A DNA stretch of 32,000 nt from Lachnoclostridium phytofermentans ISDg (GTDB lineage Bacteria > Bacillota > Clostridia > Lachnospirales > Lachnospiraceae), in contig NC_010001.1 of NCBI RefSeq assembly GCF_000018685.1, positions 3,504,038-3,536,037 on the forward strand, written 5' to 3'. Positions 1 through 21,333 of the stretch are shown piece after piece. A program made the position numbers and the translations under genes. Numbering within the stretch: the first letter of the stretch is position 1; every line of letters starts with the position of its first letter. The notes below the pieces were generated by a model, which was not told the DNA's origin, did not search any database, and worked only from the letters and a program-made list of their open reading frames with translations.

Positions 1-348
1 CTTCTACACGCGCAACTAAGATTTTTGGACTAAATGGTTTCGAAATATATTCATCAACACCTAATTCAAAACCTAATAATTCATCTTTCTCATCACTTTT
101 TGCAGTAAGCATAATGATTGGGACCTTAGAATATTTACGGATTTCTTTACATACTTGCCATCCGTCCATCTTTGGCATCATCACATCAAGAATAATTAAG
201 GATATATCTTTTTGTTCAAAGAATATATCAACTGCCTGCTCCCCATTCTCTGCTTCTAATACATCATAGTTACTTCGAGAAAGGAAATCCTTTACTAATT
301 TACGCATTCTGCTTTCATCATCTACCACTAAAACTTTTAGGCGTTCCA
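1..348 (-). CDS. OmpR/PhoB-family response regulator, receiver domain. The gene's 3' end runs off the window start.
   Basis: My reverse translation from the ATG at 348-346 gives MERLKVLVVDDESRMRKLVKDFL...LIILDVMMPKMDGW...MLTAKSDE...ISKPFSP. This has the DD pair, a phospho-Asp in LDVMMP, and the T/K motifs. A GGAGGGA SD lies at 354-360 (minus strand). Confidence 0.85.
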
Positions 349-2961: not shown

Positions 2962-2970
2962 ATGCTTTAG

Positions 2971-3304
2971 TGGAGATGACGGGAGTTGAACCCGTGTCCA
3001 AAAGCCCTTCCATTGTACTTCTACAAGTTTAGTTGATCTTTTAACATTCCCTACGTCAGACTCGAATCAACACGATTCTGATTTCAGTAGCTTCATGTTA
3101 CGCCCACATACTCAAAGCTTTGTATGAGTCGTTTCCTACATAGTCGATGCCTGGGTCTTAAAGTATAGGTGCTCTAAGTCAGACAGCTGCCATTAGGCAG
3201 CGTATGCTAAATTATCGTTAGCGTTTATATTTATTGTGGATTTAACGCATGCCTACGACTTGCTTCTCCAATTTCAAAACCCCTGTCGAAACCGGTACAT
3301 CCCC
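2971..3304 (-). ncRNA. ssrA: tmRNA (SsrA), about 334 nt, CCA not encoded
   Basis: The minus-strand 5' end is GGGGATGTACCGGTTTCGACAGGGG. The 3' end is GGACACGGGTTCAACTCCCGTCATCTCCA. The acceptor stem GGGGATG/CATCTCC contains the G3:U pair. The internal tag ORF GCT AAC GAT AAT TTA GCA TAC GCT GCC TAA encodes ANDNLAYAA. Confidence 0.95.
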
Positions 3305-3368: not shown

Positions 3369-4084
3369 TAGATATTAGGCTGTAGTTTTTTTTACAATAT
3401 TATAATAACAGCTGCAGCTTTTCGTGTTATCGAAGACTGCAGCCGTCACATGTATGAATATACTTTGGGGGCTAAATTAGTTATTGAATATTTCCCTTGT
3501 CCATTTATCTGGCATGGAATTCAGGATTTCTTGAGTCAGTTATCATATATACAGCCAACTGAAACATCAAGCGATGAATTTTCCATCCTGCAATATTCTT
3601 ATTCACCTTATAGGTTACCCGTTTATTATTTACCTCTGCTCTCTCAAAAAACGAATCACTTTGATCTCGAAGAAACAGATTATTAACTCTTTTAATAAAT
3701 TTCTCTTACTGTGTTACTACTTGCAACATGTTTTTAATTTTATGAAATATGACTAGTCCTTTTCCTGACATGTTTTTTCCTGATATGTTTTTTTCATCTA
3801 TCTATATAAATTTTATCCCCTCAAGATTTTTATACCATGTTTTTTCTATTGTCCGGAATTGTTTCTAGCTCTTGATCAACATAGGATTCCCCAACACCAG
3901 TAAATCTGATAATGTATCGTATGTAATAATGCTACTGTAATTTTGGTATTGTTTTACATTCTATAACAGACATCTTAACATTTCCTCATCATGATGTTTC
4001 CTATCTTGCTGTTTCTTATCTCGCTGTAACTAATAGTTAGTAATCAAATGAATGGTAAAGAAAATTGTAACAATTAATATTTTA

Positions 4085-4237
4085 TCATAACTTAACTGGT
4101 AAGTTTACAATAAGACCTGCTTGATCGCATAATTGAATTTGATTTGTAGATTTAGTTTCATTTGAAACTGATGCAAAACATAATAAATTACTTGCCAACA
4201 CAACTACTGATAAAATTACTAATAATTTTTTCCCCAT
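4085..4237 (-). CDS. Small secreted propeptide (50 aa), candidate signalling-peptide precursor for the adjacent XRE-TPR regulator
   Basis: Not in the ORF track because it is under 60 aa. My translation is MGKKLLVILSVVVLASNLLCFASVSNETKSTNQIQLCDQAGLIVNLPVKL, followed by TGA TAA. An AAGGAGAAGGG SD lies 5-8 nt upstream of the ATG. The shape is Sec-type: a KK n-region, a hydrophobic core, and a CFA|S-like cleavage site. The gene is divergent from the regulator. Confidence 0.6.
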   Translation of the reverse strand: MGKKLLVILSVVVLASNLLCFASVSNETKSTNQIQLCDQAGLIVNLPVKL

Positions 4238-4324
4238 ACCCTTCTCCTTATAATATAATTTGATTGATTTATTGATTTCCTTTATGTTATATTGAGTTTA
4301 GCATATAATTTTTGCCATGGATAT

Positions 4325-4338
4325 TGACAAGTATGTCA
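4325..4338. promoter_or_regulatory. Palindromic box TGACA-AGTA-TGTCA, copy 1 (candidate HTH operator)
   Basis: 5-bp inverted arms with a 4-bp spacer, lying in the divergent intergenic region. Confidence 0.35.
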
Positions 4339-4405
4339 CATTGGGGTGATTTAATAATTTCCTTTATGTTTATTTATTTTAGTATATTATTTCTGTCTTG
4401 AAAAT

Positions 4406-4419
4406 TGACAAGTATGTCA
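4406..4419. promoter_or_regulatory. Palindromic box TGACA-AGTA-TGTCA, copy 2 (candidate HTH operator)
   Basis: Identical box 81 bp downstream of copy 1, about 16 nt upstream of the regulator's ATG. Confidence 0.35.
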
Positions 4420-4434
4420 CATTGGGGTGATTTA

Positions 4435-5385
4435 ATGATAACAACTACATTTGGAGCTTTATTAAAAGAAATTAGAAAAACAAATAATATGACACAAGTA
4501 GAAACATGTAAAGATATCTGCTCTTTAAGACAATATGTGAGAATTGAAAATAATACTTCAGAACCTTCGATGTACCTAGTTCAGCTGCTTTCCCATCGTT
4601 TAAATTATGACCTTATTGCTTATTATAAACTTATATACTGCGATCAAACATTGCAAGCAAATACAATAAAAACTGAAGCAGATGTCTTAATTAAAGGTGG
4701 TCAGTATGATGATTTAGAGAAACTTATAAACAGATTTGAAAATTACCCTGAATTTAAAAAGGGTGAAAATCTTCAGTTCATATACTATTATAAGTCGTTA
4801 TGTGCCCACAGCAAAAAAGATTATAACCAAGCGGTACAGTATTGTATTAATGGATTACATATTGAAGATCCAAGTTTTAGTAAAAATCGATTATATGGTA
4901 AAATCAGCTCAAGTATTGGTTTGAATTTATATCATAATCTTGGGTGTTATCTAAATGAATTAGGAAAATTGGATTTATCTATTGATATATGGAATAAGAT
5001 ATTAATCGACATCGAAAAGAAAGTAGCATTAAACTTTTCTTATTATCAATCCTCAATAGAATTTGTAAAACAACTATATTTATCAACTTCCTATAATATG
5101 GGTACACAAAAAACTATATTAAAGGAGTATAGAATGGCTCTAAGTTATTTTGATAAAGGAATTGTATTTGCAAATAAGCATAATTGCTCCTATTATTTAA
5201 CTAATATAGTTAGGCAAAAAATGCGTGTATTATATACACTCAATAGATATGAAGAAGCAAGGGCCTCTTACGACATCTGTATGGGGCTATACTTATTACA
5301 GGGAGATACTAAGGAATTAAGAAGCTGTGAGCAAATTATGAAGGAAGATTATCCAGAGTTATTAAAAATAAAAATGTATGACTAG
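4435..5385 (+). CDS. XRE-family HTH plus TPR-repeat transcriptional regulator, RRNPP-like (PlcR/Rgg-type architecture)
   Basis: The N-terminus MITTTFGALLKEIRKTNNMTQVETCKDICSLRQYVRIENNTSEPS is a typical Cro/C1 HTH. The remaining roughly 250 aa is helical-repeat (TPR-like, Y/L/N-rich). I prefer the ATG at 4435 (GGGGTGA 5 nt upstream) over the TTG at 4405. Confidence 0.8.
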   Translation: MITTTFGALLKEIRKTNNMTQVETCKDICSLRQYVRIENNTSEPSMYLVQLLSHRLNYDLIAYYKLIYCDQTLQANTIKTEADVLIKGGQYDDLEKLINRFENYPEFKKGENLQFIYYYKSLCAHSKKDYNQAVQYCINGLHIEDPSFSKNRLYGKISSSIGLNLYHNLGCYLNELGKLDLSIDIWNKILIDIEKKVALNFSYYQSSIEFVKQLYLSTSYNMGTQKTILKEYRMALSYFDKGIVFANKHNCSYYLTNIVRQKMRVLYTLNRYEEARASYDICMGLYLLQGDTKELRSCEQIMKEDYPELLKIKMYD

Positions 5386-5458
5386 AAACGTTACGAAAAA
5401 TAAAAGTGCGAATAGAAATTACATAAATAAAAGTACGAATAAAAAAGTAATATATAAC

Positions 5459-5496
5459 AAAAACCGTAAAATCCATGCATGGATTGCACGGTTTTT
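5459..5496. terminator. Bidirectional hairpin terminator between the convergent XRE-TPR and receiver genes
   Basis: AAAACCGTAAAATCCATG / CATGGATTGCACGGTTTTT, with an A-run on one side and a T-run on the other. Confidence 0.6.
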
Positions 5497-5522
5497 GTCA
5501 TATATGTATTAAATCGTTTTCA

Positions 5523-5933
5523 TTACCTCGGCAAAGGTACCTGATACATCACATCATGCACCTCATCTATTATACTCATCAAACTTTCAGTACTAAACGG
5601 TTTGGAAACTATATTCGTTATCCCAAGATTGTATGCTTCTCTCATCTTTGATTCATTCACTGTTCCAGATAAAATCGCAACATAAGGCATATCTATTTCC
5701 TTCTCCATTAAGTACCGAACAATATCTAAACCATTTTCATGTTCCAATTTTGTTTGAGAATTAGTATTTAAATTCAGATCAAGAAAGATAAGATCTATCT
5801 TTTCCTCGTCTAAGATCTTAACTGCCTCTTCATAGGTTCCAGCATCAAACATATATAAATTTCTATACTTGCTTAAACTAGATTTTATACCGATTCGGAT
5901 AAAAGCTACATCATCAACAATTAATATATTCAA
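5523..5933 (-). CDS. Stand-alone receiver-domain (CheY-like) response regulator with no output domain
   Basis: 136 aa: VDD near the N-terminus, FLDLNL phospho-Asp, AILSG and SKPF motifs. It has a TTG start with GAGGT about 8 nt upstream. There is no room for a LytTR or wHTH domain. Confidence 0.85.
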   Translation of the reverse strand: MNILIVDDVAFIRIGIKSSLSKYRNLYMFDAGTYEEAVKILDEEKIDLIFLDLNLNTNSQTKLEHENGLDIVRYLMEKEIDMPYVAILSGTVNESKMREAYNLGITNIVSKPFSTESLMSIIDEVHDVMYQVPLPR

Positions 5934-6100
5934 GTCTGCTACCTCATTTCAACATAAATTCATTTTTTTATAAAGCTACTTTTATTAAGATGATATTTAT
6001 AATACCATAATAACAGAAATACTTAAATAATTCAATTGAGTTTCCTTTATATTTCGCCTTGCAGAACCCAAATGATGAGTGCATATTATTGGGCACTCCT

Positions 6101-6140
6101 AAAAAGCAGAGCCTACATGTTTTACAATGTTAGGCTCTGC
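6101..6140 (-). terminator. Intrinsic terminator immediately after agrD
   Basis: Minus strand GCAGAGCCTA-15 nt loop-TAGGCTCTGC followed by TTTTT. Confidence 0.7.
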
Positions 6141-6159
6141 TTCCAAATATCTTACCAGA

Positions 6160-6282
6160 TTATTCAATTAATTCCTCTGGCATTTCATCCTGGCCCAAAA
6201 TCCATATTAAGCATGGATAAACAGAAGTTGCCTCTGCAATTGCTACAAATGCTGTTACAGCTAATAATAAAAGCTTTGTCAT
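6160..6282 (-). CDS. agrD: AgrD-like autoinducing-peptide precursor (40 aa)
   Basis: Not in the ORF track. My translation is MTKLLLLAVTAFVAIAEATSVYPCLIWILGQDEMPEELIE followed by TAA. GGAGG sits 8 nt upstream. It has the three AgrD parts: an amphipathic hydrophobic leader, a single Cys with four hydrophobic residues after it, and an acidic tail with a P-E-E-L motif. It lies directly downstream of agrB. Confidence 0.8.
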   Translation of the reverse strand: MTKLLLLAVTAFVAIAEATSVYPCLIWILGQDEMPEELIE

Positions 6283-6389
6283 ATAAATAACCTCCTTTAT
6301 TAATTATACATTAATGTACAAGCTCATTTTAGCACCTCTTACATAATTTAACAAGTGCTTTATTGGTTACTTTTAACAATATTATTATA

Positions 6390-6965
6390 TTATATTCTAT
6401 CATGCTGAACTTTGAAAATCTTGTACGCCATTGGAGTAGTTAGTGATAATATAAGTAACATCGAGAATAAACACATACTATAAATCTCCATCCAAAGAAA
6501 ACGAATAGAGAAGGTAAGTACCATAGCGATAAAAAATTTAAATTTCAACTCTTTCTTTAGTTCCATCTTACGAATCGGTCTTGCATATGTACCTTGGGGT
6601 ACATATCGATACCATAAAATAAGATTAATCAACCACAAAATTATCTCTAGTTCGATTGTCAATGGTAATGCTTTGGTTATCACAATGATAGCACATACTA
6701 ATAGTAAGGAACTGAAAAAACATAGCATATAATTTTTAACATGTATACCGCCAGAGTAACCCCGGTATAACTTAAGGATAATCATTACTAGCACAGCTTC
6801 TTTCAAACAATGAAACCAAAAAAATATAAACGCAATTAGAAGCGAATAAATTAAGCTGCGTAGAAAATTTTTTGTTTGGTAAACGGCACGTTTAGCTCTT
6901 ATGGGTTCATACCCCTTAGTTGTAATTAATAATTGTTCTAAATTATTGTAAGTAAAATGATTCAA
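6390..6965 (-). CDS. agrB: AgrB-like membrane endopeptidase (AgrD processing and export)
   Basis: 191 aa and polytopic. The motif YRGYSGGIHVKNYMLC places His75 and Cys82 seven residues apart, the same spacing as the catalytic H77/C84 of S. aureus AgrB. TTG start with GGAGG 8 nt upstream. Confidence 0.85.
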   Translation of the reverse strand: MNHFTYNNLEQLLITTKGYEPIRAKRAVYQTKNFLRSLIYSLLIAFIFFWFHCLKEAVLVMIILKLYRGYSGGIHVKNYMLCFFSSLLLVCAIIVITKALPLTIELEIILWLINLILWYRYVPQGTYARPIRKMELKKELKFKFFIAMVLTFSIRFLWMEIYSMCLFSMLLILSLTTPMAYKIFKVQHDRI

Positions 6966-7020
6966 TTATACAGCCTCCTATAAGCATCATCACAAATTAC
7001 GTTCCTTAATCCGAAGTACA

Positions 7021-8361
7021 CTAATTATTTATGATAAGTCGTATCTCAAATTCTCCCTCGCCATCAATAATATCGTAATTAATACTTATATTTTTTCTTA
7101 CCATTTCTTCAATGTTTCTAAGACCAATATGTTTTGATGTTCCGTACTTTAATAACTTACCGTTTTTATCATAGTTCTTGAAATTCTTAGTAGTAAATTC
7201 GAATCGATTATCATCAAATATTAGATTGATATAAACCGTCTTGTCTTCAGTGAAGTGTGCAACTTCAATCGCATTATCTACAATAATGTTGATTAGATCC
7301 ACAAATATTTTGGAATTTATTTTAACATTGCTGCTACCATCATAAATAACCTTTAAGTTCACACCTAATTCCCTAGCATAATCTTGTTTCATACTTAATA
7401 TTGAGGCTACCACAGTGTTTGGAATATTAATATATTTTAACTTATAATTTATTTTATTTTTTTCATCCCATTCCAGTAAGTCTTTTAAAACTGTTCGGAC
7501 ATCCTCAATTTTAAGTTCTTCACAATTTACAAAGAAGTTCACAGCCTGCATCATATTATTGTAACTATGGCCGAAGTAATTTATATTATCGACAAAATCC
7601 TGATGAATCTCGTTTAATTTATTTCTCTCTTCAATTTGACGATTCCTATAGCTTGTGATAATAGATTCATAATAGGTTAATAAAAAAATTGTTGCGGCAA
7701 GAAGTATCGTAAAACAGATTAACATAAATGATTCATTACTAATTCCCAATTTATCATAAATTCCTTCTCCCAAAACAGTAAACGTTAGCATAAGAAATAA
7801 CGTTATACCAAACTTGATGTATTTTACATATCTTTGGGTTCTTTCGCTCTTCGTTTCACAATATCTTATTACTTTCTCATAGATATTATCTTGATTTATC
7901 CACATATAATAAGCTGTAATCAACATACCAAGCATATATAATATTTGACAAATATCACGATGAATTTCTATCGATAATGTAATAGATAATAAATAAAGTG
8001 AAAAATTAGTAATTAATAGAGCTAAAATCTGTAAGAAAACAATTACGACAGTTATTAAAATTCCGGTAGTTATAGATACCACAAGGTTACGCTGATATAA
8101 GCAATAAGTTAAGATAATGATAACAGCTACCGGTATAAATATCATAAGTATTTCACCCATATAAAAAGGTAAATTCATATCCATGTTTAGTTTATAATAT
8201 GACAAACCAAATGAAACAATTGTAAATCCTGCTAATCGACAAATTCCTTTTTTACGAAATAAAGAGCGTATAAAAAACGCTAGTACTAGACAATCTATTA
8301 ATAAAAAAATTGTATCATGCAACATATGTAATTCCCACCTATTTTCTAATTCCTTTAACAT
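7021..8361 (-). CDS. AgrC-like (HPK10-type) membrane sensor histidine kinase
   Basis: About 6-7 N-terminal TM segments. H-box-like EIHQDFVDNINYF, N-box IIVDNAIEVA, and G-box-like TSKHIGLRNIEEMV (GHKL/HATPase_c_5 type). An alternative and probably better start is the ATG at 8325, with AGGTGGG 8 nt upstream. Confidence 0.85.
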   Translation of the reverse strand: MLKELENRWELHMLHDTIFLLIDCLVLAFFIRSLFRKKGICRLAGFTIVSFGLSYYKLNMDMNLPFYMGEILMIFIPVAVIIILTYCLYQRNLVVSITTGILITVVIVFLQILALLITNFSLYLLSITLSIEIHRDICQILYMLGMLITAYYMWINQDNIYEKVIRYCETKSERTQRYVKYIKFGITLFLMLTFTVLGEGIYDKLGISNESFMLICFTILLAATIFLLTYYESIITSYRNRQIEERNKLNEIHQDFVDNINYFGHSYNNMMQAVNFFVNCEELKIEDVRTVLKDLLEWDEKNKINYKLKYINIPNTVVASILSMKQDYARELGVNLKVIYDGSSNVKINSKIFVDLINIIVDNAIEVAHFTEDKTVYINLIFDDNRFEFTTKNFKNYDKNGKLLKYGTSKHIGLRNIEEMVRKNISINYDIIDGEGEFEIRLIINN

Positions 8362-8385
8362 CTAAATAGATTACACTATTTCTAT

Positions 8386-8414
8386 ATTCTACCTTTTTTG
8401 ATTAATTTTGTCAA
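8386..8414 (-). promoter_or_regulatory. Sigma-A-type promoter for the kinase-agrB-agrD operon
   Basis: Minus strand TTGACA (8414-8409), 17 nt, TAGAAT (8391-8386). Confidence 0.5.
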
Positions 8415-8481
8415 AGCAATAACTGACATTTACTAATAAAAATAATAAAAAATAATAAATTCATTTTACCTTATTTTGTAA

Positions 8482-8510
8482 TTGACTTCTCTTCTTTACT
8501 ATGTTATAGT
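8482..8510 (+). promoter_or_regulatory. Sigma-A-type promoter for the csp transcript
   Basis: TTGACT (8482-8487), 17 nt, TATAGT (8505-8510). Confidence 0.55.
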
Positions 8511-8538
8511 TAGAGGGTAATATAAATGCGATTTTGAT

Positions 8539-8596
8539 TCACATATTTTTGTAAGTCATTAACATTTAATGATTTACAAAAATATGTGATTTTTTT
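8539..8596 (+). terminator. Leader hairpin plus T-run (candidate attenuator) in the csp 5' UTR
   Basis: TCACATATTTTTGTAA (8539-8554) pairs perfectly with TTACAAAAATATGTGA (8574-8589). The inner TCATTAA-CAT-TTAATGA extends the stem. Seven Ts follow at 8590-8596. Confidence 0.5.
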
Positions 8597-8725
8597 ATGA
8601 GCTAATCACTCGTAAGCATTAAGTGCAGTCGCTTTTTAGTTTTAGACAGTAAGGTCACTGTAAAGTTTCTTTATTGTTCAAAAGACAGCAAGCTGTCAAA
8701 TATTCAATATTTTAGGAGGTATCTT

Positions 8726-8929
8726 ATGAACAAGGGTACAGTAAAATGGTTCAATGCACAGAAGGGCTTTGGTTTCATCACAAATAGCGAGACTGGTGAA
8801 GATGTATTCGTACATTTTTCCGGTATTGCATCTGAAGGCTTTAAGTCTTTAGAAGAAGGTCAGAATGTAACTTTCGAGATTACTAAAGGCGCTCGTGGTA
8901 TGCAGGCAACTAACGTTAGCATTGCATAA
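8726..8929 (+). CDS. Cold-shock protein, CspA family
   Basis: The 67-aa product [18 protein letters not shown]...VFVHFS carries the RNP1/RNP2 motifs. AGGAGG lies 7 nt upstream. Confidence 0.95.
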
Positions 8930-8948
8930 TCGAATAAAGATTTAAGAA

Positions 8949-8996
8949 AGAGTCTCCGTCTTCAAGCAATAGCTTGAAGACGGAGACTCTTTCTCT
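8949..8996 (+). terminator. Intrinsic terminator after csp
   Basis: Perfect 18-bp stem GAGTCTCCGTCTTCAAGC / GCTTGAAGACGGAGACTC followed by TTTCT. Confidence 0.75.
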
Positions 8997-9049
8997 AGGA
9001 GAATACACTTCGTATTTGAACCTGAAGTGTGAGTGATCATCCTTCGCAT

Positions 9050-10844: not shown

Positions 10845-11309
10845 CTAGAGATTCTTTACCTTAAAGTCTTTCTCCGCTTCTCTTTTCTGATCTTTCTTTG
10901 CAATATCCTGTCGCTTGTCATAGAGCTTCTTACCCCTAGCTACTCCGATTTCCATCTTTACTAGACTATCTTTTAGATAAATCGTTAACGGAACCAAAGT
11001 ATATCCTTTTTGCTGGATCTGACCAACAATTTTATTTATCTGAAATTTATGAAGTAATAACTTTTTAACACGCAATGGATCTTTGTTAAATATATTTCCT
11101 TTTTCATATGGGCTTATATGCATGTTATAAACATAAACTTCCCCATTTTCAATACGCATAAAGGATTCTTTAATACTGCATTTTCCCATACGTAGGGATT
11201 TTACTTCGGTGCCGTGTAATACGACACCAGCTTCATACGTTTCCTCTATGAAATAGTCGAATCTGGCTTTTTTATTATTTGCAATTAGCTTAATACCTTC
11301 TTTTGCCAT
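10845..11309 (-). CDS. smpB: SsrA-binding protein SmpB
   Basis: The product reads [32 protein letters not shown]...[10 protein letters not shown], the classic SmpB pattern. Confidence 0.95.
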
Positions 11310-14360: not shown

Positions 14361-15905
14361 TTATTTTTTGATTAATAAAGATTTTCCAGTCATTTCTTTT
14401 GGTTGTTCCATCTTCATCATTTCAATTAAGGTTGGAATGATATCAGCTAAACAGCCACCTTCTCTTAAAGTATAGGAATCATCGTAGTTTATTAAAATAA
14501 ATGGAACTGGATTTGTAGTATGAGCTGTAAATGGCTCTCCATTTGTATAGTCTACTAACTGCTCTGCATTTCCATGATCTGCGCAGATAAACATCTGTCC
14601 ATCAACAGAAAGAAGTGCATCATAAGCCCTACCTACACACGCATCCACTGCTTCTACTGCCTTGATCGCTGCATCAGAGATTCCAGTATGACCAACCATA
14701 TCTGGGTTAGCAAAGTTAACGATGATCACATCGTATTTTAGTGATGTGATTGCTTCTACTAACTTATCCGCTACTGCATTCGCACTCATCTCTGGCTGAA
14801 GATCATAAGTTGCAACTTTGGGAGAATTCACTAGGATACGATCCTCTCCTTCATTTGGTGCTTCCACACCACCGTTAAAGAAGAATGTAACGTGAGCATA
14901 TTTCTCTGTCTCAGCAATTCTAGCCTGAGTCTTTCCATGTTCAGCAAGGTATTCTCCAAATGTATTTGTAATTGAAACCTTTTCAAATGCTACGCTCTTA
15001 TTAGGGATTGTAACATCATACTCTGAGAAACAAACATAAGTAAGAGGTAATCTTCCGCTCTTACGAACAAAGCCGTCAAAATCATCTGTACAGAATGCTC
15101 TTGTAATTTCTCTTGCACGGTCAGGACGGAAGTTAAAGAAGATTATAGAATCATTTGCTTTAATAGGAGCAATTGCCTTACCATCCTTAACTACTACAGT
15201 AGGTAAAACGAACTCGTCATTCACGCCTTCTGCATAAGAAGCAGCTACTGCCTCTACTGCATTCGCAGCTTCTACACCCTCGCCATCCACTAAAGCAGCA
15301 TATGCTTTTTCTACACGGTCCCAACGATTGTCACGGTCCATAACATAGTAACGTCCAGTTACAGATGCAATACGACCTACTCCTAGCTCTGCCATTTTAG
15401 CTTCTAAAGCTTCCATAAAGCTCTTACCAGAGGTTGGAGCAGTATCTCTACCATCTAAAAATGCATGTACATAAACATTCTCTAAGCCATGTCTCTTCGC
15501 AAGCTCTAATAATCCATAAAGATGTGTAATATGACTATGAACACCACCATCCGATAATAATCCGAATAAATGAAGTGCTGTATTATTCTTTTTACAATTC
15601 TCTACTGCTTTTATTAACTGAGTATTTTCAAAGAAATCACCATCTTGAATTTCTTTTGTTATACGGGTTAACTCCTGATATACAATTCTTCCGGCACCCA
15701 TATTAAGATGTCCAACTTCAGAGTTTCCCATCTGTCCCTCTGGAAGACCAACTGCCATCCCAGAAGCATTACCTTTTACAAATGGATAATCTTTCATCAA
15801 TTTATCAAGAACAGGCTTTTTGGCTAATGCTATTGCATTACCTTCTGTCTTCTCGTTTAATCCATATCCATCAAGTATCATAAGTACGGTCGGTTTTTTG
15901 CTCAT
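14361..15905 (-). CDS. gpmI: 2,3-bisphosphoglycerate-independent phosphoglycerate mutase
   Basis: The product carries LMILDGYG, GNSEVGHLNMGAGR and ADHGNAE. 514 aa. Confidence 0.95.
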   Translation of the reverse strand: MSKKPTVLMILDGYGLNEKTEGNAIALAKKPVLDKLMKDYPFVKGNASGMAVGLPEGQMGNSEVGHLNMGAGRIVYQELTRITKEIQDGDFFENTQLIKAVENCKKNNTALHLFGLLSDGGVHSHITHLYGLLELAKRHGLENVYVHAFLDGRDTAPTSGKSFMEALEAKMAELGVGRIASVTGRYYVMDRDNRWDRVEKAYAALVDGEGVEAANAVEAVAASYAEGVNDEFVLPTVVVKDGKAIAPIKANDSIIFFNFRPDRAREITRAFCTDDFDGFVRKSGRLPLTYVCFSEYDVTIPNKSVAFEKVSITNTFGEYLAEHGKTQARIAETEKYAHVTFFFNGGVEAPNEGEDRILVNSPKVATYDLQPEMSANAVADKLVEAITSLKYDVIIVNFANPDMVGHTGISDAAIKAVEAVDACVGRAYDALLSVDGQMFICADHGNAEQLVDYTNGEPFTAHTTNPVPFILINYDDSYTLREGGCLADIIPTLIEMMKMEQPKEMTGKSLLIKK

Positions 15906-16024
15906 AATTTATTCTCCTTTTGTTCATTAGAATTATGTCAAAACTTCAAACGGTCAAGTATTTCCGATGTAGTGCTCTTTTCATTTGTTAAAATTTTAGC
16001 AAATGCACCACTTCATTCTTTACT

Positions 16025-16052
16025 ATCATAACATGAATTATTCATTAGTCAA
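16025..16052 (-). promoter_or_regulatory. Candidate sigma-A promoter for gpmI
   Basis: Minus strand TTGACT (16052-16047), 16 nt, TATGAT (16030-16025). Confidence 0.45.
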
Positions 16053-16061
16053 GAGGATTTC

Positions 16062-16115
16062 TATGTCCGCTATTCCTCCTATGTCCATTATTCCTTCTAT
16101 GTCCGTTATTCCTTC
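16062..16115. repeat. 3 x 18-bp tandem direct repeat just upstream of the gpmI -35
   Basis: The three units are TATGTCCGCTATTCCTCC, TATGTCCATTATTCCTTC and TATGTCCGTTATTCCTTC. Confidence 0.8.
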
Positions 16116-16177
16116 CGACGTTTCTAATTATCGTGATGGTTGGAAGTTTTGAAATCATATTTCATCCCATTTATACC

Positions 16178-17533
16178 TTATGACTTATTCCCTAATTCTC
16201 TCCATACAGAACATAACATTGTTACAATGCAGGCAGTTCCTCCAAGAAAATTTGAAATTGGTTCCGCTAAGAAAACTCCATTCGTCCCTAGATGTCCAAC
16301 TCGAGGTAATAAAAGTGTTAATGGAACAACAATAATTGCTTTTCTTAATAAGGAAAAGAAAATCGCATATTTTGATTTTCCAAGAGCGACAAAGGTTGCT
16401 TGCCCTACAAATTGAAGCGACATCATGAAGAATCCAAAATAATAAATTTTCATAGCCGGTACCGCTGCTTTTATTAAATCCGGCTCATGATTAAATAAGC
16501 GTATGAAAAATTCAGGAAACCAATTCAGTAGCCCCCACATAACTAAAGTATAGGAAATCGATGTTACCGCCATGAATTTGATTGCTTTTTTTACACGTTT
16601 ATATTCTGATGCTCCATAATTGAATCCCATCACAGGTTGCGCACTGTTTGTAATTCCGCTTACAGGCATGCTGATGATTTCACGAACAGAATTGATTACC
16701 GTCATTACGCCCACGTACAAATCTCCGCCATAGCTTTGTAATGTGGTATTACAAGCAATCTGAACTGCTCCATTGGTTGCTGACATAATGAATCCAGACA
16801 TTCCAAGTCCGGTGATTGCCTTGACTCGTTGGAGAGATAGTTTCATTGTTTTTCGTCTTAACTTTAAAATTGTCTTTTTTCCAGTTAAAAATTTTAAGAT
16901 CCATAATGCAGAAATCATTTGTGATATTACGGTAGCAATTGCAGCACCTTGAACTCCCATGTCAAATACAAAGATGAGAATTGGGTCTAAAAAAATATTC
17001 GTTATTGCTCCAATTATTACGGAATACATACCAATTTTTCCGAAACCTTGGGCATTGATAAAGCTATTCATCCCTAGTCCTATCATAACAAAGACGCTAC
17101 CGAGCAGATAAATCGAAATATACTGATTAGCAAATGGGTAAGTTGCATCACTTGCCCCAAATAAATATAACATCGGCCGTTTTAGCAGAAAGCAAGCAAG
17201 AGTAATAAATAATCCGGAACTTAGAAGTAAAGCAAAAGAGTTTCCCATAATCGCTTCCGCTTCTTCATTATCCCCTCTTCCCCTTGCTATGGAACATAGT
17301 GGGGCTCCACCCATACCAAACAAATTCGCAAAAGCAATGATGATTGTAATAATAGGGAGTGTCAAACCCATACCGGTTAATGCTAATGTAGCATCTTTTG
17401 GCAACAAACCTATGTACATTCTGTCTACAATATTATATAGAACATTTACTAGCTGTGCTAAAGTCATTGGGATTGCAAGTTTTATTATATTTCCAACTAC
17501 GCTTCCTTTGGAAAAATCATTCGTTTGTGCCAT
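16178..17533 (-). CDS. MATE-family efflux transporter
   Basis: 12-TM profile with the typical MATE N-terminus (GNIIKLAIPMTLAQLVNVLYNIVDRMYIG). The ATG at 17533 is preceded by GGGTGGAAG. Confidence 0.9.
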   Translation of the reverse strand: MAQTNDFSKGSVVGNIIKLAIPMTLAQLVNVLYNIVDRMYIGLLPKDATLALTGMGLTLPIITIIIAFANLFGMGGAPLCSIARGRGDNEEAEAIMGNSFALLLSSGLFITLACFLLKRPMLYLFGASDATYPFANQYISIYLLGSVFVMIGLGMNSFINAQGFGKIGMYSVIIGAITNIFLDPILIFVFDMGVQGAAIATVISQMISALWILKFLTGKKTILKLRRKTMKLSLQRVKAITGLGMSGFIMSATNGAVQIACNTTLQSYGGDLYVGVMTVINSVREIISMPVSGITNSAQPVMGFNYGASEYKRVKKAIKFMAVTSISYTLVMWGLLNWFPEFFIRLFNHEPDLIKAAVPAMKIYYFGFFMMSLQFVGQATFVALGKSKYAIFFSLLRKAIIVVPLTLLLPRVGHLGTNGVFLAEPISNFLGGTACIVTMLCSVWRELGNKS

Positions 17534-18946: not shown

Positions 18947-20932
18947 TTATCGTTCAAACTGACTTGGATGCTTCGCGAAAAAGTCAACTCTTGGTTCCAA
19001 ATATTTAAGCTCGTGTTCTCCTTCTGCGGATATAAAATAAGATAACGGTTCAAACACATGCTCCCAAGAAAAGAACTCTTTCCCGACTTTTAGATATTCT
19101 TGTATCATTTCACAACCTCTTGGCGCAATAGGATGAAGTAATATAGAAGTCGTACGTACACCATGGAAGCAATCAATTAAGAGCTGTTTTAATTTTTCTT
19201 TATCTTCAGATTCCTGTGCCATCTTAATTCCATTCGCCCATCGCTTATTCATAGAACGAATATACGTGTCTAATACATACGTAATACTATGAAACTCATG
19301 ACGATACATATGCTCTTCGTATTTTAAAATCGTATCCTTCGCCTCATCAATTACCTCCTGACTTACAGCTCCTAACGGAAGCTTTCCATCGAAATCAGAC
19401 TGTACCTGATAAAAACAGGAACGAATCAAACGGTTAAACACATTTGTAAGAAGATTGCCATCTTTTAATACCGGATCTGCACCTATCTGTTCTTCTTTTG
19501 GCAAATATACCTGCGGCATAAAGCTAACGCTCTTATTGGCTAATCCTAAACTTAAAAAATGGATTCTCAGTTGCTCATCCGTATAATAATCAAGAAGTTC
19601 ACCAGCCATTGGAGGTTTGATATCAGAACTGCTGCTTGCTTTCTTATCCATAAATAAAATATGATTATTGGCAACAAGCATTGGAAGTTTTACCTTTGCC
19701 ATATCAATATGATTTACCTCCTCACTAAAGAGAACTGCAAACATCGCCATCTCAGCTATTCCATAAAAGTAAATATTATCTTCACCGATAAATTGATACA
19801 CTTCGCTATCCTCATGAAGAAAATAATCCTTCCATAATTCCTCGGCTTTCCCTTGAAGTTTTAAATATTCTCTAATAAATGAAATCGGCGCCCATAGAGA
19901 TTCTGGCCATACCCAAAAGGTTAAATCTTCTTCACCTGGTACCGGAACTCCCCATTCGATATTTCCTGTTAAGCGAAATGGCACTAATGTTTTACCAGTA
20001 CGATAGCGAAGCCCCCCTGCTGCTAAGATATCTTTTGCTCTATCTCTATCATTTAGATTTTTAAATACAAAAGTTACAGAAGGTTTCTTCTCCTCATTGA
20101 TGGTTTCATGCGCTGGTAGCTTTTCTTCTAATTCTTTTAAATCCGCGATTTGCTTTTTTAATACATGCATTACTGGAGGTTTTAAAAATTCTTCAATTGT
20201 ATTTAATAAATACTTTCTAGATACCGTATTCTTTCTTAGCCAATCAATCCTAGTCTGAAGCATTTCTGTGCAGTCTTCTAAACGGAAGTACCAATTATTA
20301 ACCTCTTTCATAATTGGGGTTTTTCCTGATAAAGTGCTCTTTGGGTTTATCAAATCACTTGGCATATACTGATGTCCTAGGGAACATTCATCTGCATATC
20401 CATGTTCGGATTGACACCCTTCAATTGGACATTGGCCTACAACCTGTCTACCATTTAAGAACACATTAAAATCAGGATCATAAAACTGTGTTGTTGTCAA
20501 TTTTTCTAAATAGCCTTGTTCTTTTAACTTTAAAAATACTTCTTCTGATACCTTCTCATGAATTTCACCAGCCTCACCTAGTGCAGAGGCTGCATAAAGG
20601 TTTGGAGATATCTGATATTATTCAAGTACTTCTTTTTGTTTTTCATGATTACTACGAACATAATCTGTGATCGATCCAACATTCTCATTCTCTTCTAGTT
20701 TTTTACGATAGCTTTCCAAAATCGGTGAGCCATAACAATCTGTTCCCGAAACAAATATTACATTTTCCTCTCCGATACGATCTCGCAAAAATCTTGCAAA
20801 GGTATCTGCATGAACAAACATACCACCAACATGGCCAAAATGAAGTTCTTTATTGCCATAAGGCATTCCTGCTGTAACAACTGCGCGCTTTGGAAAAACT
20901 GGACGCGTCTTTTCTTTTTTCCATTCAGACAT
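18947..20932 (-). pseudogene. metG: Methionyl-tRNA synthetase interrupted by one in-frame TAA (20618-20620)
   Basis: Track ORFs 20618..20989 and 18947..20500 are in the same frame. The 39 codons between them (YQISPNLYAASALGEAGEIHEKVSEEVFLKLKEQGYLEKL) are open and continue the MetRS alignment. A HIGH-type motif HFGH is present. The start is the ATG at 20932, directly after the T-box terminator. Confidence 0.8.
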
Positions 20933-21333
20933 AAAAAAATCACCTCTTGCGTTATATTTAGCAAGGGGCGAATGAATTCGCGGTACCACCCTATTTCATT
21001 GATACGTCACCATATCAACCTTATCAAGTACACTTAGATACTCTAGTCCTGTAACGGAGACAACCGTCATAGCATCAATAAAATAAGGCAACAACCATTA
21101 ATATTCTGGTAATCATTAATTCTCTAGTAGCCATTAATATTCAGGTTACCATTATTTCTCCAGTGGTATTCATTAATTCTCTGGTAACCATTAATACTTG
21201 GTATTCCTAATTTTATATCCGTATGCAGCTCCGAGTCTTGTTTCACCATTCTTTCACTACCTTCTTCCACCAACCGAAGGCTCTCTGTAAGTGTTAGAAA
21301 GACTACTCTTCTCTTCCTAGCCTTTTTCTTGTT
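20933..21333 (-). promoter_or_regulatory. T-box riboswitch leader with candidate AUG (Met) specifier
   Basis: On the minus strand, the conserved T-box sequence AGGGTGGTACCGCG lies at 20992-20979, followed by a terminator hairpin and T-run (20970-20933). Stem I-like AGAGA/GAGTA elements are present. GTGAAAGAATGG contains the candidate specifier at 21249-21247. Confidence 0.85.
21093..21202. repeat. About 6 tandem 17-21-nt repeats inside the T-box leader
   Basis: Plus-strand units are AACCATTAATATTCTGGT, AATCATTAATTCTCTAGT, AGCCATTAATATTCAGGT, TACCATTATTTCTCCAGTGGT, ATTCATTAATTCTCTGGT and AACCATTAATACTTGGT. Confidence 0.8.

Follow-up and report, generated by a model that had tools for sequence, protein, structure and literature searches.

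Agr is the model of cyclic-peptide quorum sensing in Firmicutes, and all characterised Agr systems known to us end in a transcription factor of the LytTR type. This raises a question for an agr locus of Lachnoclostridium phytofermentans ISDg, in which the genes for an AgrC-like histidine kinase, AgrB and AgrD are followed by a gene for a bare receiver domain (REC): by which route would the peptide signal leave the kinase? The locus lies in a stretch of 32,000 nucleotides (nt) of contig NC_010001.1 (positions 3,504,038 to 3,536,037), here called the window, whose numbering is used throughout. An earlier reading of these letters without database searches (the sequence-only reading) had located the four genes and proposed REC as a possible partner of the kinase in an uncharacterised Agr wiring. 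All four genes are present on the minus strand at the positions it gave, and the linkage to agrD, the purifying selection on REC and an origin apart from AgrA lend support to the proposal. The locus is probably a self-contained four-gene Agr cassette, whose AgrC-like kinase signals to a dedicated single-domain REC protein instead of a LytTR-type AgrA. Searches of the open-access literature brought up neither this locus nor an Agr system with a REC-only partner.

The four genes and their products

The first gene (7021-8325, minus strand) encodes an AgrC-like membrane histidine kinase of the HPK10 type with 434 amino acids (aa), identical to NCBI protein P0001. Its start at 8325 was set by a conserved Shine-Dalgarno sequence and by comparison with relatives; the full open reading frame (ORF) reaches 8361 and comprises 446 aa. 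The protein consists of a polytopic N-terminal sensor with multiple hydrophobic helices, a DHp helix and a GHKL ATPase domain. The phospho-accepting histidine is H265 (ORF numbering) within the motif N-x-F-G-H-S-Y-N-N, and the N-box reads DNAIE. In an alignment of kinase relatives, the N-terminal membrane half is variable and the cytoplasmic half is highly conserved, with invariant H-, N- and G-boxes. The top sequence match of the kinase profile in the PDB is the ATP-binding domain of AgrC (4bxi), which is a weak one (E = 0.034). When the AlphaFold2 (AF2) model of the kinase (predicted local distance difference test, pLDDT, 67) was compared by Foldseek, the top three structures were those of Staphylococcus aureus AgrC (6e52, 6e95 and 4bxi), with a template modelling (TM) score of 0.74 to 4bxi. 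Kinases of related cassettes have precomputed matches to HATPase_c_5, two of which are weak.

The second gene (6390-6965, minus strand) encodes the AgrB peptidase/cyclase of 191 aa, which scores 84.9 bits against the Pfam family AgrB (PF04647, cut-off 23) and is also matched by PRK01100 of NCBIfam. The His/Cys motif of the peptidase was read in its sequence as H75-x6-C82. The AgrD precursor of 40 aa, MTKLLLLAVTAFVAIAEATSVYPCLIWILGQDEMPEELIE, is encoded at 6160-6282 on the same strand and was recognised by the NCBIfam model TIGR04223 (22 bits, cut-off 19) and by family comparison. Its predicted core begins at C24, and the motif C-x-x-[WF]-x-x-G-Q-[ED]-[ED]-M-P-E-E-L is shared by most of 13 cassettes, two of which have more divergent tails.

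The fourth gene (5523-5933, minus strand) encodes the single-domain response regulator of 136 aa. As the sequence-only reading had stated, it stands alone, has its own TTG start and Shine-Dalgarno sequence, both of them conserved, and lacks a DNA-binding output: Response_reg (62.2 bits, Pfam) is the sole domain, and no second one was detected. The acceptor pocket is complete, with D7, D8, the phospho-acceptor D52, S89 and K111; across the REC family D8, D52, S89, K111 and P112 are invariant and D7 is nearly so. The loop between beta3 and alpha3 is long (residues 53-68). The AF2 model (pLDDT 82.6) has a canonical, generic fold with TM scores of 0.7-0.8 to many receivers, and REC is not especially close to Spo0F, CheY or LytTR-type receivers. 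When 1.84 billion representatives were searched exhaustively by HMMER with the REC profile, just four matches fell below 1e-30. Stand-alone receivers of 129-144 aa, few in number, head the ranking, and the 105 next-best proteins are multi-REC, hybrid-kinase, GGDEF and Hpt proteins.

Three other identities for REC were considered and rejected. A truncated AgrA is ruled out by the stand-alone relatives, which measure 129-144 aa in all lineages, by the distance of only 138 nt between the stop codon of REC and the convergent gene, and by the domains of the next-nearest REC proteins. The 25 Pfam families that occur most often in the 105 next-best proteins include no DNA-binding output family (LytTR, Trans_reg_C, GerE); since these nearest REC proteins share no common output of this kind, REC is not a recently truncated AgrA. 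Membership in the cREC family (PF20274) has a score of 29.3 bits against a threshold of 27 that lies beneath the stronger Response_reg match, and the context does not fit, as genes for cyclic-phosphate-processing enzymes were found in none of the cassettes. Orthology to Spo0F was discarded for want of specific similarity and of a Spo0B or Hpt gene in or near any cassette.

Conservation, linkage and transcription

Within the genus, five further lineages carry a syntenic kinase-agrB-agrD-REC locus, with kinase identities of 63-80%. From the closest to the most distant of these lineages, identity to the window protein falls from 79 to 63% for the kinase, from 87 to 55% for AgrB and from 75 to 46% for AgrD, and for REC from 95 to 87.5%. 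The ratios of nonsynonymous to synonymous substitution rates (dN/dS) within the genus are 0.04-0.09 for REC, 0.07-0.19 for the kinase transmitter, 0.12-0.23 for AgrB, 0.29-0.44 for AgrD and 0.14-0.72 for the kinase sensor. REC is thus the most constrained component of the cassette and is under strong purifying selection. The pattern mirrors that of the agr specificity groups of staphylococci, in which hypervariable agrB, agrD and the sensor part of agrC stand beside a conserved regulator.

Synteny within a single genus could be plain inheritance, and therefore lineages outside it were examined. Word-indexed protein searches that started from the kinase, its alignment or REC returned only the genus clade and one outlier; recovery of the wider family needed the exhaustive HMMER search. 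The outlier (P0012/P0018, about 40% identity) again has the order kinase-agrB-agrD-REC, with a TnpB-like gene adjoining. Together with this P0018 lineage, eight more from the HMMER list were compared (among them P0019, P0020, P0021, P0023, P0024, P0032 and P0038). In 9/9 lineages outside the genus, REC follows agrD on the same strand at a distance of 40-71 nt, and AgrB and a kinase with HATPase_c_5 are encoded upstream wherever the contig reaches that far. The distant kinases are 28-36% identical to that of the window, over most or all of their length save in one lineage, and the distant AgrB proteins 28-41%. An all-against-all BLASTP comparison of the flanking ORFs found none that is common to the lineages. 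The sequence-only reading had made its case depend on REC being conserved beside agr in related genomes, and this is what was found, in all genus relatives as well as in the nine distant lineages. REC as a chance neighbour is ruled out by the 9/9 linkage to agrD. The fixed position of REC after agrD amid unrelated flanks therefore indicates a self-contained four-gene cassette with REC as its regulator. As far as sequence comparison can establish such things, it is firm what the genes encode, that the catalytic and acceptor residues are intact, that REC is strictly linked to agrD and that REC is under strong purifying selection.

A scan of genome contigs returned three loci, all from the same genus clade, and in scans of metagenomes and IMG/VR with the REC alignment nearly all matches were generic receivers that lack agr genes. 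In the complete cassette most distant from that of the window (L014), REC has an 8-nt overlap with a gene downstream of it, which encodes a small membrane protein (MSNHKYELLALLAGFLVGIGLAQFF..., L014 4591-4766) and is cut by the contig end. This protein might be a lineage-specific partner.

Some of the contigs that carry the cassette look, by their gene content, like phages or mobile elements. For L027/L028, L027 is a 137-kb scaffold of 25% GC with unidirectional ORFs of unknown function, a D12 methylase and a phage-type clamp loader (phrog_5846, 2e-55). The cassette of L026 lies among many small unknown ORFs and a NinI-like phosphatase gene, that of L029 adjoins an excisionase-like helix-turn-helix (HTH) gene and a Fic gene, and that of L014 adjoins the TnpB-like gene. 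In GenBank phage records, the kinase and AgrB have no detectable similarity by tblastn at E <= 1e-3, and REC gives just weak generic matches of about 30% identity. The REC-partnered Agr variant is distinct, rare and probably mobile.

A promoter upstream of the kinase gene (8386-8414, minus strand; TTGACA-17-TAGAAT) is the best sigma-70-like site of the region, with an 11/12 match, and both of its hexamers are conserved in all genus relatives. The sequence-only reading had assigned this promoter to the kinase gene, agrB and agrD together. The assignment needs one correction: agrD also has its own extended -10 promoter (6326-6354, minus strand; TTGTTA-17-TGcTAAAAT) that is conserved in all six genus loci, the most distant one included. 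The intrinsic terminator that had been recognised 3' of agrD was confirmed (6101-6144, minus strand; -23.2 kcal/mol, z = -5.1, followed by a U-run), and relatives keep its stem via compensatory changes. REC in turn has a promoter of its own (6007-6035, minus strand; TTGAAT-17-TGtTATTAT), within a block CAATTGAAT...TTCTG.TAT.AT..TATTATAA that is conserved in all genus relatives together with the Shine-Dalgarno sequence and the TTG start. Accordingly, the gap between agrD and REC in the genus, of about 190-225 nt, holds a conserved terminator, then the REC promoter, the Shine-Dalgarno sequence and the TTG start. In the shorter gaps of the distant cassettes, a small hairpin occurs in some and no clear intrinsic terminator was seen. 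The REC ORF of the window stops 23 nt before a terminator hairpin (5455-5500, no strand assigned; -23.5 kcal/mol, z = -6.1) that separates REC from a PlcR-like gene convergent to it, and relatives have a hairpin-forming stretch at the same place. On this evidence, the cassette of the genus is predicted to form three transcription units, namely kinase-agrB, agrD with its terminator, and REC, each behind its own promoter.

Upstream of the -35 elements of the kinase, agrD and REC promoters, nothing is conserved among the genus relatives. All three thus appear to be plain sigma-A-type promoters without a conserved activator site, and there is therefore no sign of AgrA-like transcriptional autoinduction. 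The claim that the window has neither a LytTR protein nor paired LytTR repeats was borne out. No LytTR domain was detected among the scanned ORFs of at least 90 aa, which cover every ORF of response-regulator size in the window; AgrA-type paired boxes number 0 in the window, with 0.14 expected; and 9-mer direct repeats at a spacing of 19-23 nt are absent from the intergenic regions of the locus. Similarly, no related cassette contains a LytTR regulator.

Comparison with the agrBDCA system of S. aureus summarises what has been kept and what has been replaced. Both systems have the His/Cys motif of AgrB, an AgrD that is short and combines a Cys core with an acidic P-x-E-L tail, and a polytopic HPK10-type kinase, whose cytoplasmic module here has its best structural matches in the staphylococcal protein (6e52, 4bxi). 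In both, the sensor, AgrD and AgrB diversify, and the transmitter and the regulator are conserved. In contrast to S. aureus, the regulator here is a 136-aa receiver without LytTR, the gene order is kinase-agrB-agrD-REC and not B-D-C-A, the H-box F-G-H-S-Y-N-N has no acidic residue after the histidine, and there are no AgrA boxes and no divergent promoters of the P2/P3 type; an RNAIII-like effector was not identified.

Clostridial agr loci that lack agrCA, or in which agrBD and agrCA are separated, are known (PMC12312760). A kinase without a regulator has been described for agr3 of phage phiCDHM1 (agrC-agrB-agrD; PMC3901668) and for System 1 of C. autoethanogenum (agrD1-agrC1-agrB1 and a spo0E-like gene; PMC8748961). 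The present cassette resembles these two in that a kinase is encoded with agrB and agrD and that the locus has no LytTR regulator; it shares the C-B-D order with agr3, and some members of its family likewise reside on phage-like contigs. The difference is that both were reported without any response regulator, whereas REC is a fixed fourth gene here.

Proposed output of the receiver

In the proposed wiring, AgrB, with H75 and C82, would process AgrD to a cyclic peptide, the core of which begins at Cys24, CLIWI(L), and possibly forms a six-residue ring. The variable polytopic domain of the AgrC-like kinase would sense this peptide, the kinase would autophosphorylate on H265, and the phosphoryl group would pass to D52 of REC. 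The case for these steps as far as phosphorylated REC, though indirect, is a good one. Since REC has no output domain, its phosphorylated form (REC~P) must either bind another protein or pass the phosphate on. The same follows from comparison with Spo0F, CheY and DivK, which are likewise stand-alone (beta-alpha)5 receivers with all phospho-acceptor residues and no effector domain, so that the output would be by protein-protein contact or through a phosphorelay. Unlike these regulators, REC is paired with an HPK10/AgrC-type kinase and a module for cyclic-peptide synthesis, has the long beta3-alpha3 insertion (53-68) and has no specific sequence affinity to Spo0F or CheY. An even chance is given to the wider proposal that a mobile Agr family swapped AgrA for a bare receiver and delivers its signal post-translationally into a host or phage target or a phosphorelay, e.g. 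the Spo0A pathway; in L. phytofermentans, the target may be a PlcR-like receptor encoded next to REC.

Several observations weigh against a kinase-REC pathway of this kind. In profile searches with the AgrB, HATPase_c_5 and Response_reg models, the first and the last lie above threshold, but HATPase_c_5 falls just below it in the window kinase (21.3 bits against the Pfam cut-off of 22); the protein is assigned to the AgrC (HPK10) type despite this score. Histidine kinases usually carry an acidic residue next to the phospho-accepting histidine. In all kinases of the cassette family this residue is Ser (Asn in one; S266 in the window, codon 7569-7571), and the kinase chemistry could thus be atypical, in that the non-acidic position may alter the kinase or phosphatase reaction. 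The phosphotransfer from kinase to REC is a step that we infer from the sequences. In the genus, the predicted promoters would have REC transcribed apart from the kinase, which locally weakens the operon argument. The comparison of flanking ORFs gave no candidate target that is co-conserved with the cassette, and the family of REC cassettes is very small, with about 10 lineages among billions of proteins. Finally, the LytTR search covers the window, and a LytTR regulator encoded elsewhere could possibly take phosphate from the kinase as well.

Any account of the output in L. phytofermentans has to consider the genes beyond the REC terminator, which appear to form a second quorum-sensing cassette, of the RRNPP type. 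A PlcR-like regulator is encoded on the plus strand at 4435-5385 (start of the mechanically called ORF, 4405), convergent to REC. It has the Pfam domains HTH_3 and TPR, and its profile matches PlcR (2qfc) at E = 1.2e-9, followed by ComR and RapF. Divergent from it lies a gene for a secreted, PapR-like pro-peptide (4085-4237, minus strand) of 50 aa, with a hydrophobic N-terminal segment and the conserved C-terminus LCDQAGLIVNLPVKL; it is present twice in KNHs2131 (L016 13903-14067 and 14148-14369). Between the two genes, a 21-nt box, CCCAATGTGACATACTTGTCA, is 100% conserved across relatives. The window has two copies of it on the minus strand (4325-4345 and 4406-4426, spanning 4325-4426), which overlap the -35 region of the peptide-gene promoter, are 81 bp apart and stem from a tandem duplication; there are no further matches in the window, where 0 are expected. 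The block of REC, PlcR-like and peptide genes is kept in all genus relatives whose contigs extend there, and identities of 40-92% for the peptide and 63-90% for the regulator indicate co-diversification. As in PlcR/PapR, an HTH and TPR regulator adjoins a co-diversifying pro-peptide with a box at the peptide promoter. Unlike in PlcR/PapR, the peptide gene is divergent and not downstream, the box bears no relation to the PlcR box in sequence, and the function is putative. This cassette accompanies agr only in this genus and therefore cannot be a general output partner.

Three alternatives or refinements can be set against these data. One of them is a specific version of the output step and compatible with REC as the partner of the kinase: REC would be a Spo0F-like entry point whose phosphorylated form feeds an Hpt/Spo0B-like protein, or Spo0A directly, so that the peptide tunes the initiation of sporulation. 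Spo0F shares the architecture, in which a sensor kinase feeds a receiver that stands alone, and the nearest relatives of REC outside its family include multi-REC, hybrid-kinase and Hpt phosphorelay proteins. Clostridial Agr systems, moreover, repeatedly affect sporulation, as reported for C. acetobutylicum and C. botulinum (PMC8748961, PMC3901668), for C. difficile, in which AgrD1 acts 'through an unknown regulatory pathway' (PMC11210211), and for R. cellulolyticum (PMC8251862). The AgrA-less System 1 of C. autoethanogenum is followed by a spo0E-like gene (PMC8748961). Phosphorelays are predicted in many Clostridia (PMC6136694). On the other side, the main text of that paper does not mention L. 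phytofermentans. Spo0F is absent from the 23 PDB sequence matches of REC at E <= 1e-3 and ranks 48th by fold, and the cassettes and their surroundings offer neither Spo0B nor Hpt as a recipient; on balance, this version is rather unlikely.

A different kind of refinement applies to the genus of L. phytofermentans alone, where REC~P might by analogy bind the adjacent PlcR-like HTH-TPR regulator and so integrate the Agr and RRNPP peptides. TPR proteins of the RRNPP superfamily bind REC domains (Rap-Spo0F, NprR-Spo0F), and the REC gene converges on a gene whose product matches PlcR and also RapF. This gene has a secreted-peptide gene as its partner, with a fully conserved box at the promoter, and is retained with REC in the genus relatives. 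We regard this target as quite improbable: PlcR itself is to our knowledge not known to bind receivers, no distant cassette has an HTH-TPR neighbour, so that it is not the ancestral output, the box CCCAATGTGACATACTTGTCA is absent from the agr and REC promoters, and adjacency in one syntenic genus can be plain inheritance. Improbable, too, is the proposal that a LytTR or other DNA-binding regulator encoded elsewhere is the true output and that REC merely acts as a phosphate sink or modulator, like CheY-type sinks. It draws on AgrA-less loci whose regulators are presumed to lie elsewhere (System 1 of C. autoethanogenum, agr3 of phiCDHM1 and, from a table in PMC12312760, agrBD of C. perfringens), and on the scope of the LytTR search here, namely the window and the related cassettes. 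By contrast, REC is the only regulator to accompany the cassette in about 10 lineages, in unrelated contexts and on probable mobile elements; it is the most constrained component, and no promoter of the locus has LytTR-type repeats. Such strict co-inheritance is not what one would expect of a sink that travels without its main regulator, which counts against this proposal and leaves the dedicated kinase-REC pair as the preferred reading.

With a receiver-only protein as its fixed, highly constrained fourth gene, the cassette implies that a non-transcriptional output is open to Agr signalling. Should the wiring be as proposed, it would be the first Agr system with an output that does not bind DNA, and a PlcR-like target would join two peptide languages. 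Several clostridial and phage agr loci are without a known regulator, which makes them puzzling. REC is a small, concrete bait protein with which the output could be sought, and in L. phytofermentans, a cultivable model of plant-biomass fermentation, the pathway from peptide through kinase and REC to target looks genetically and biochemically tractable. Its presence on apparently phage-like or mobile contigs makes the cassette relevant to how mobile elements sense or manipulate the density signals of their hosts.

Genomic surroundings

The region from 4001 to 9000 is a more AT-rich stretch, with a GC content of 27-31% against 34-38% in the flanks. The agr locus is part of a core region with rnr, smpB, a CBS-DHH pyrophosphatase gene, csp, the transfer-messenger RNA (tmRNA) gene, a thymidine kinase gene and genes of glycolysis. 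The tmRNA gene (2968-3304, minus strand; tag ANDNLAYAA) is about 7.5 kb away from smpB (10845-11309), and csp, the agr and RRNPP genes and the low-GC stretch are located between the two. In KNHs2131, the peptide-gene side of the locus has, farther out, an integrase-bearing insertion (L016 about 14700-16816). The chromosome seems prone to gene gain in this part.

The stretch 8482-8725 (plus strand), in front of csp (8726-8929), comprises a promoter that is conserved (TTGACT-17-TATAGT) and about 200 nt of leader. The leader contains a near-perfect hairpin (8539-8589) with 24-nt arms, -27.5 kcal/mol and z = -9.1, which is followed by a U-run. This block is the same in all six genus loci compared, except for one base. 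It has no match in Rfam and looks, from its predicted structure, like an attenuator or a cold-shock regulatory element.

The window begins (1-340, minus strand) within a gene for an OmpR-type response regulator, of which it includes the N-terminal part. Its HAMP-HisKA kinase partner is found in the syntenic locus L009 (16108-17302), and the pair is unrelated to the agr cassette. The methionyl-tRNA synthetase gene (18947-21327, minus strand) is apparently divided into two ORFs (20618-20989 and 18947-20500), between which Pfam profile positions of about 62-118 are absent, and a T-box leader (20961-21327) overlaps the upstream ORF. The split could be due to a frameshift, a sequencing error or an unusual gene structure.

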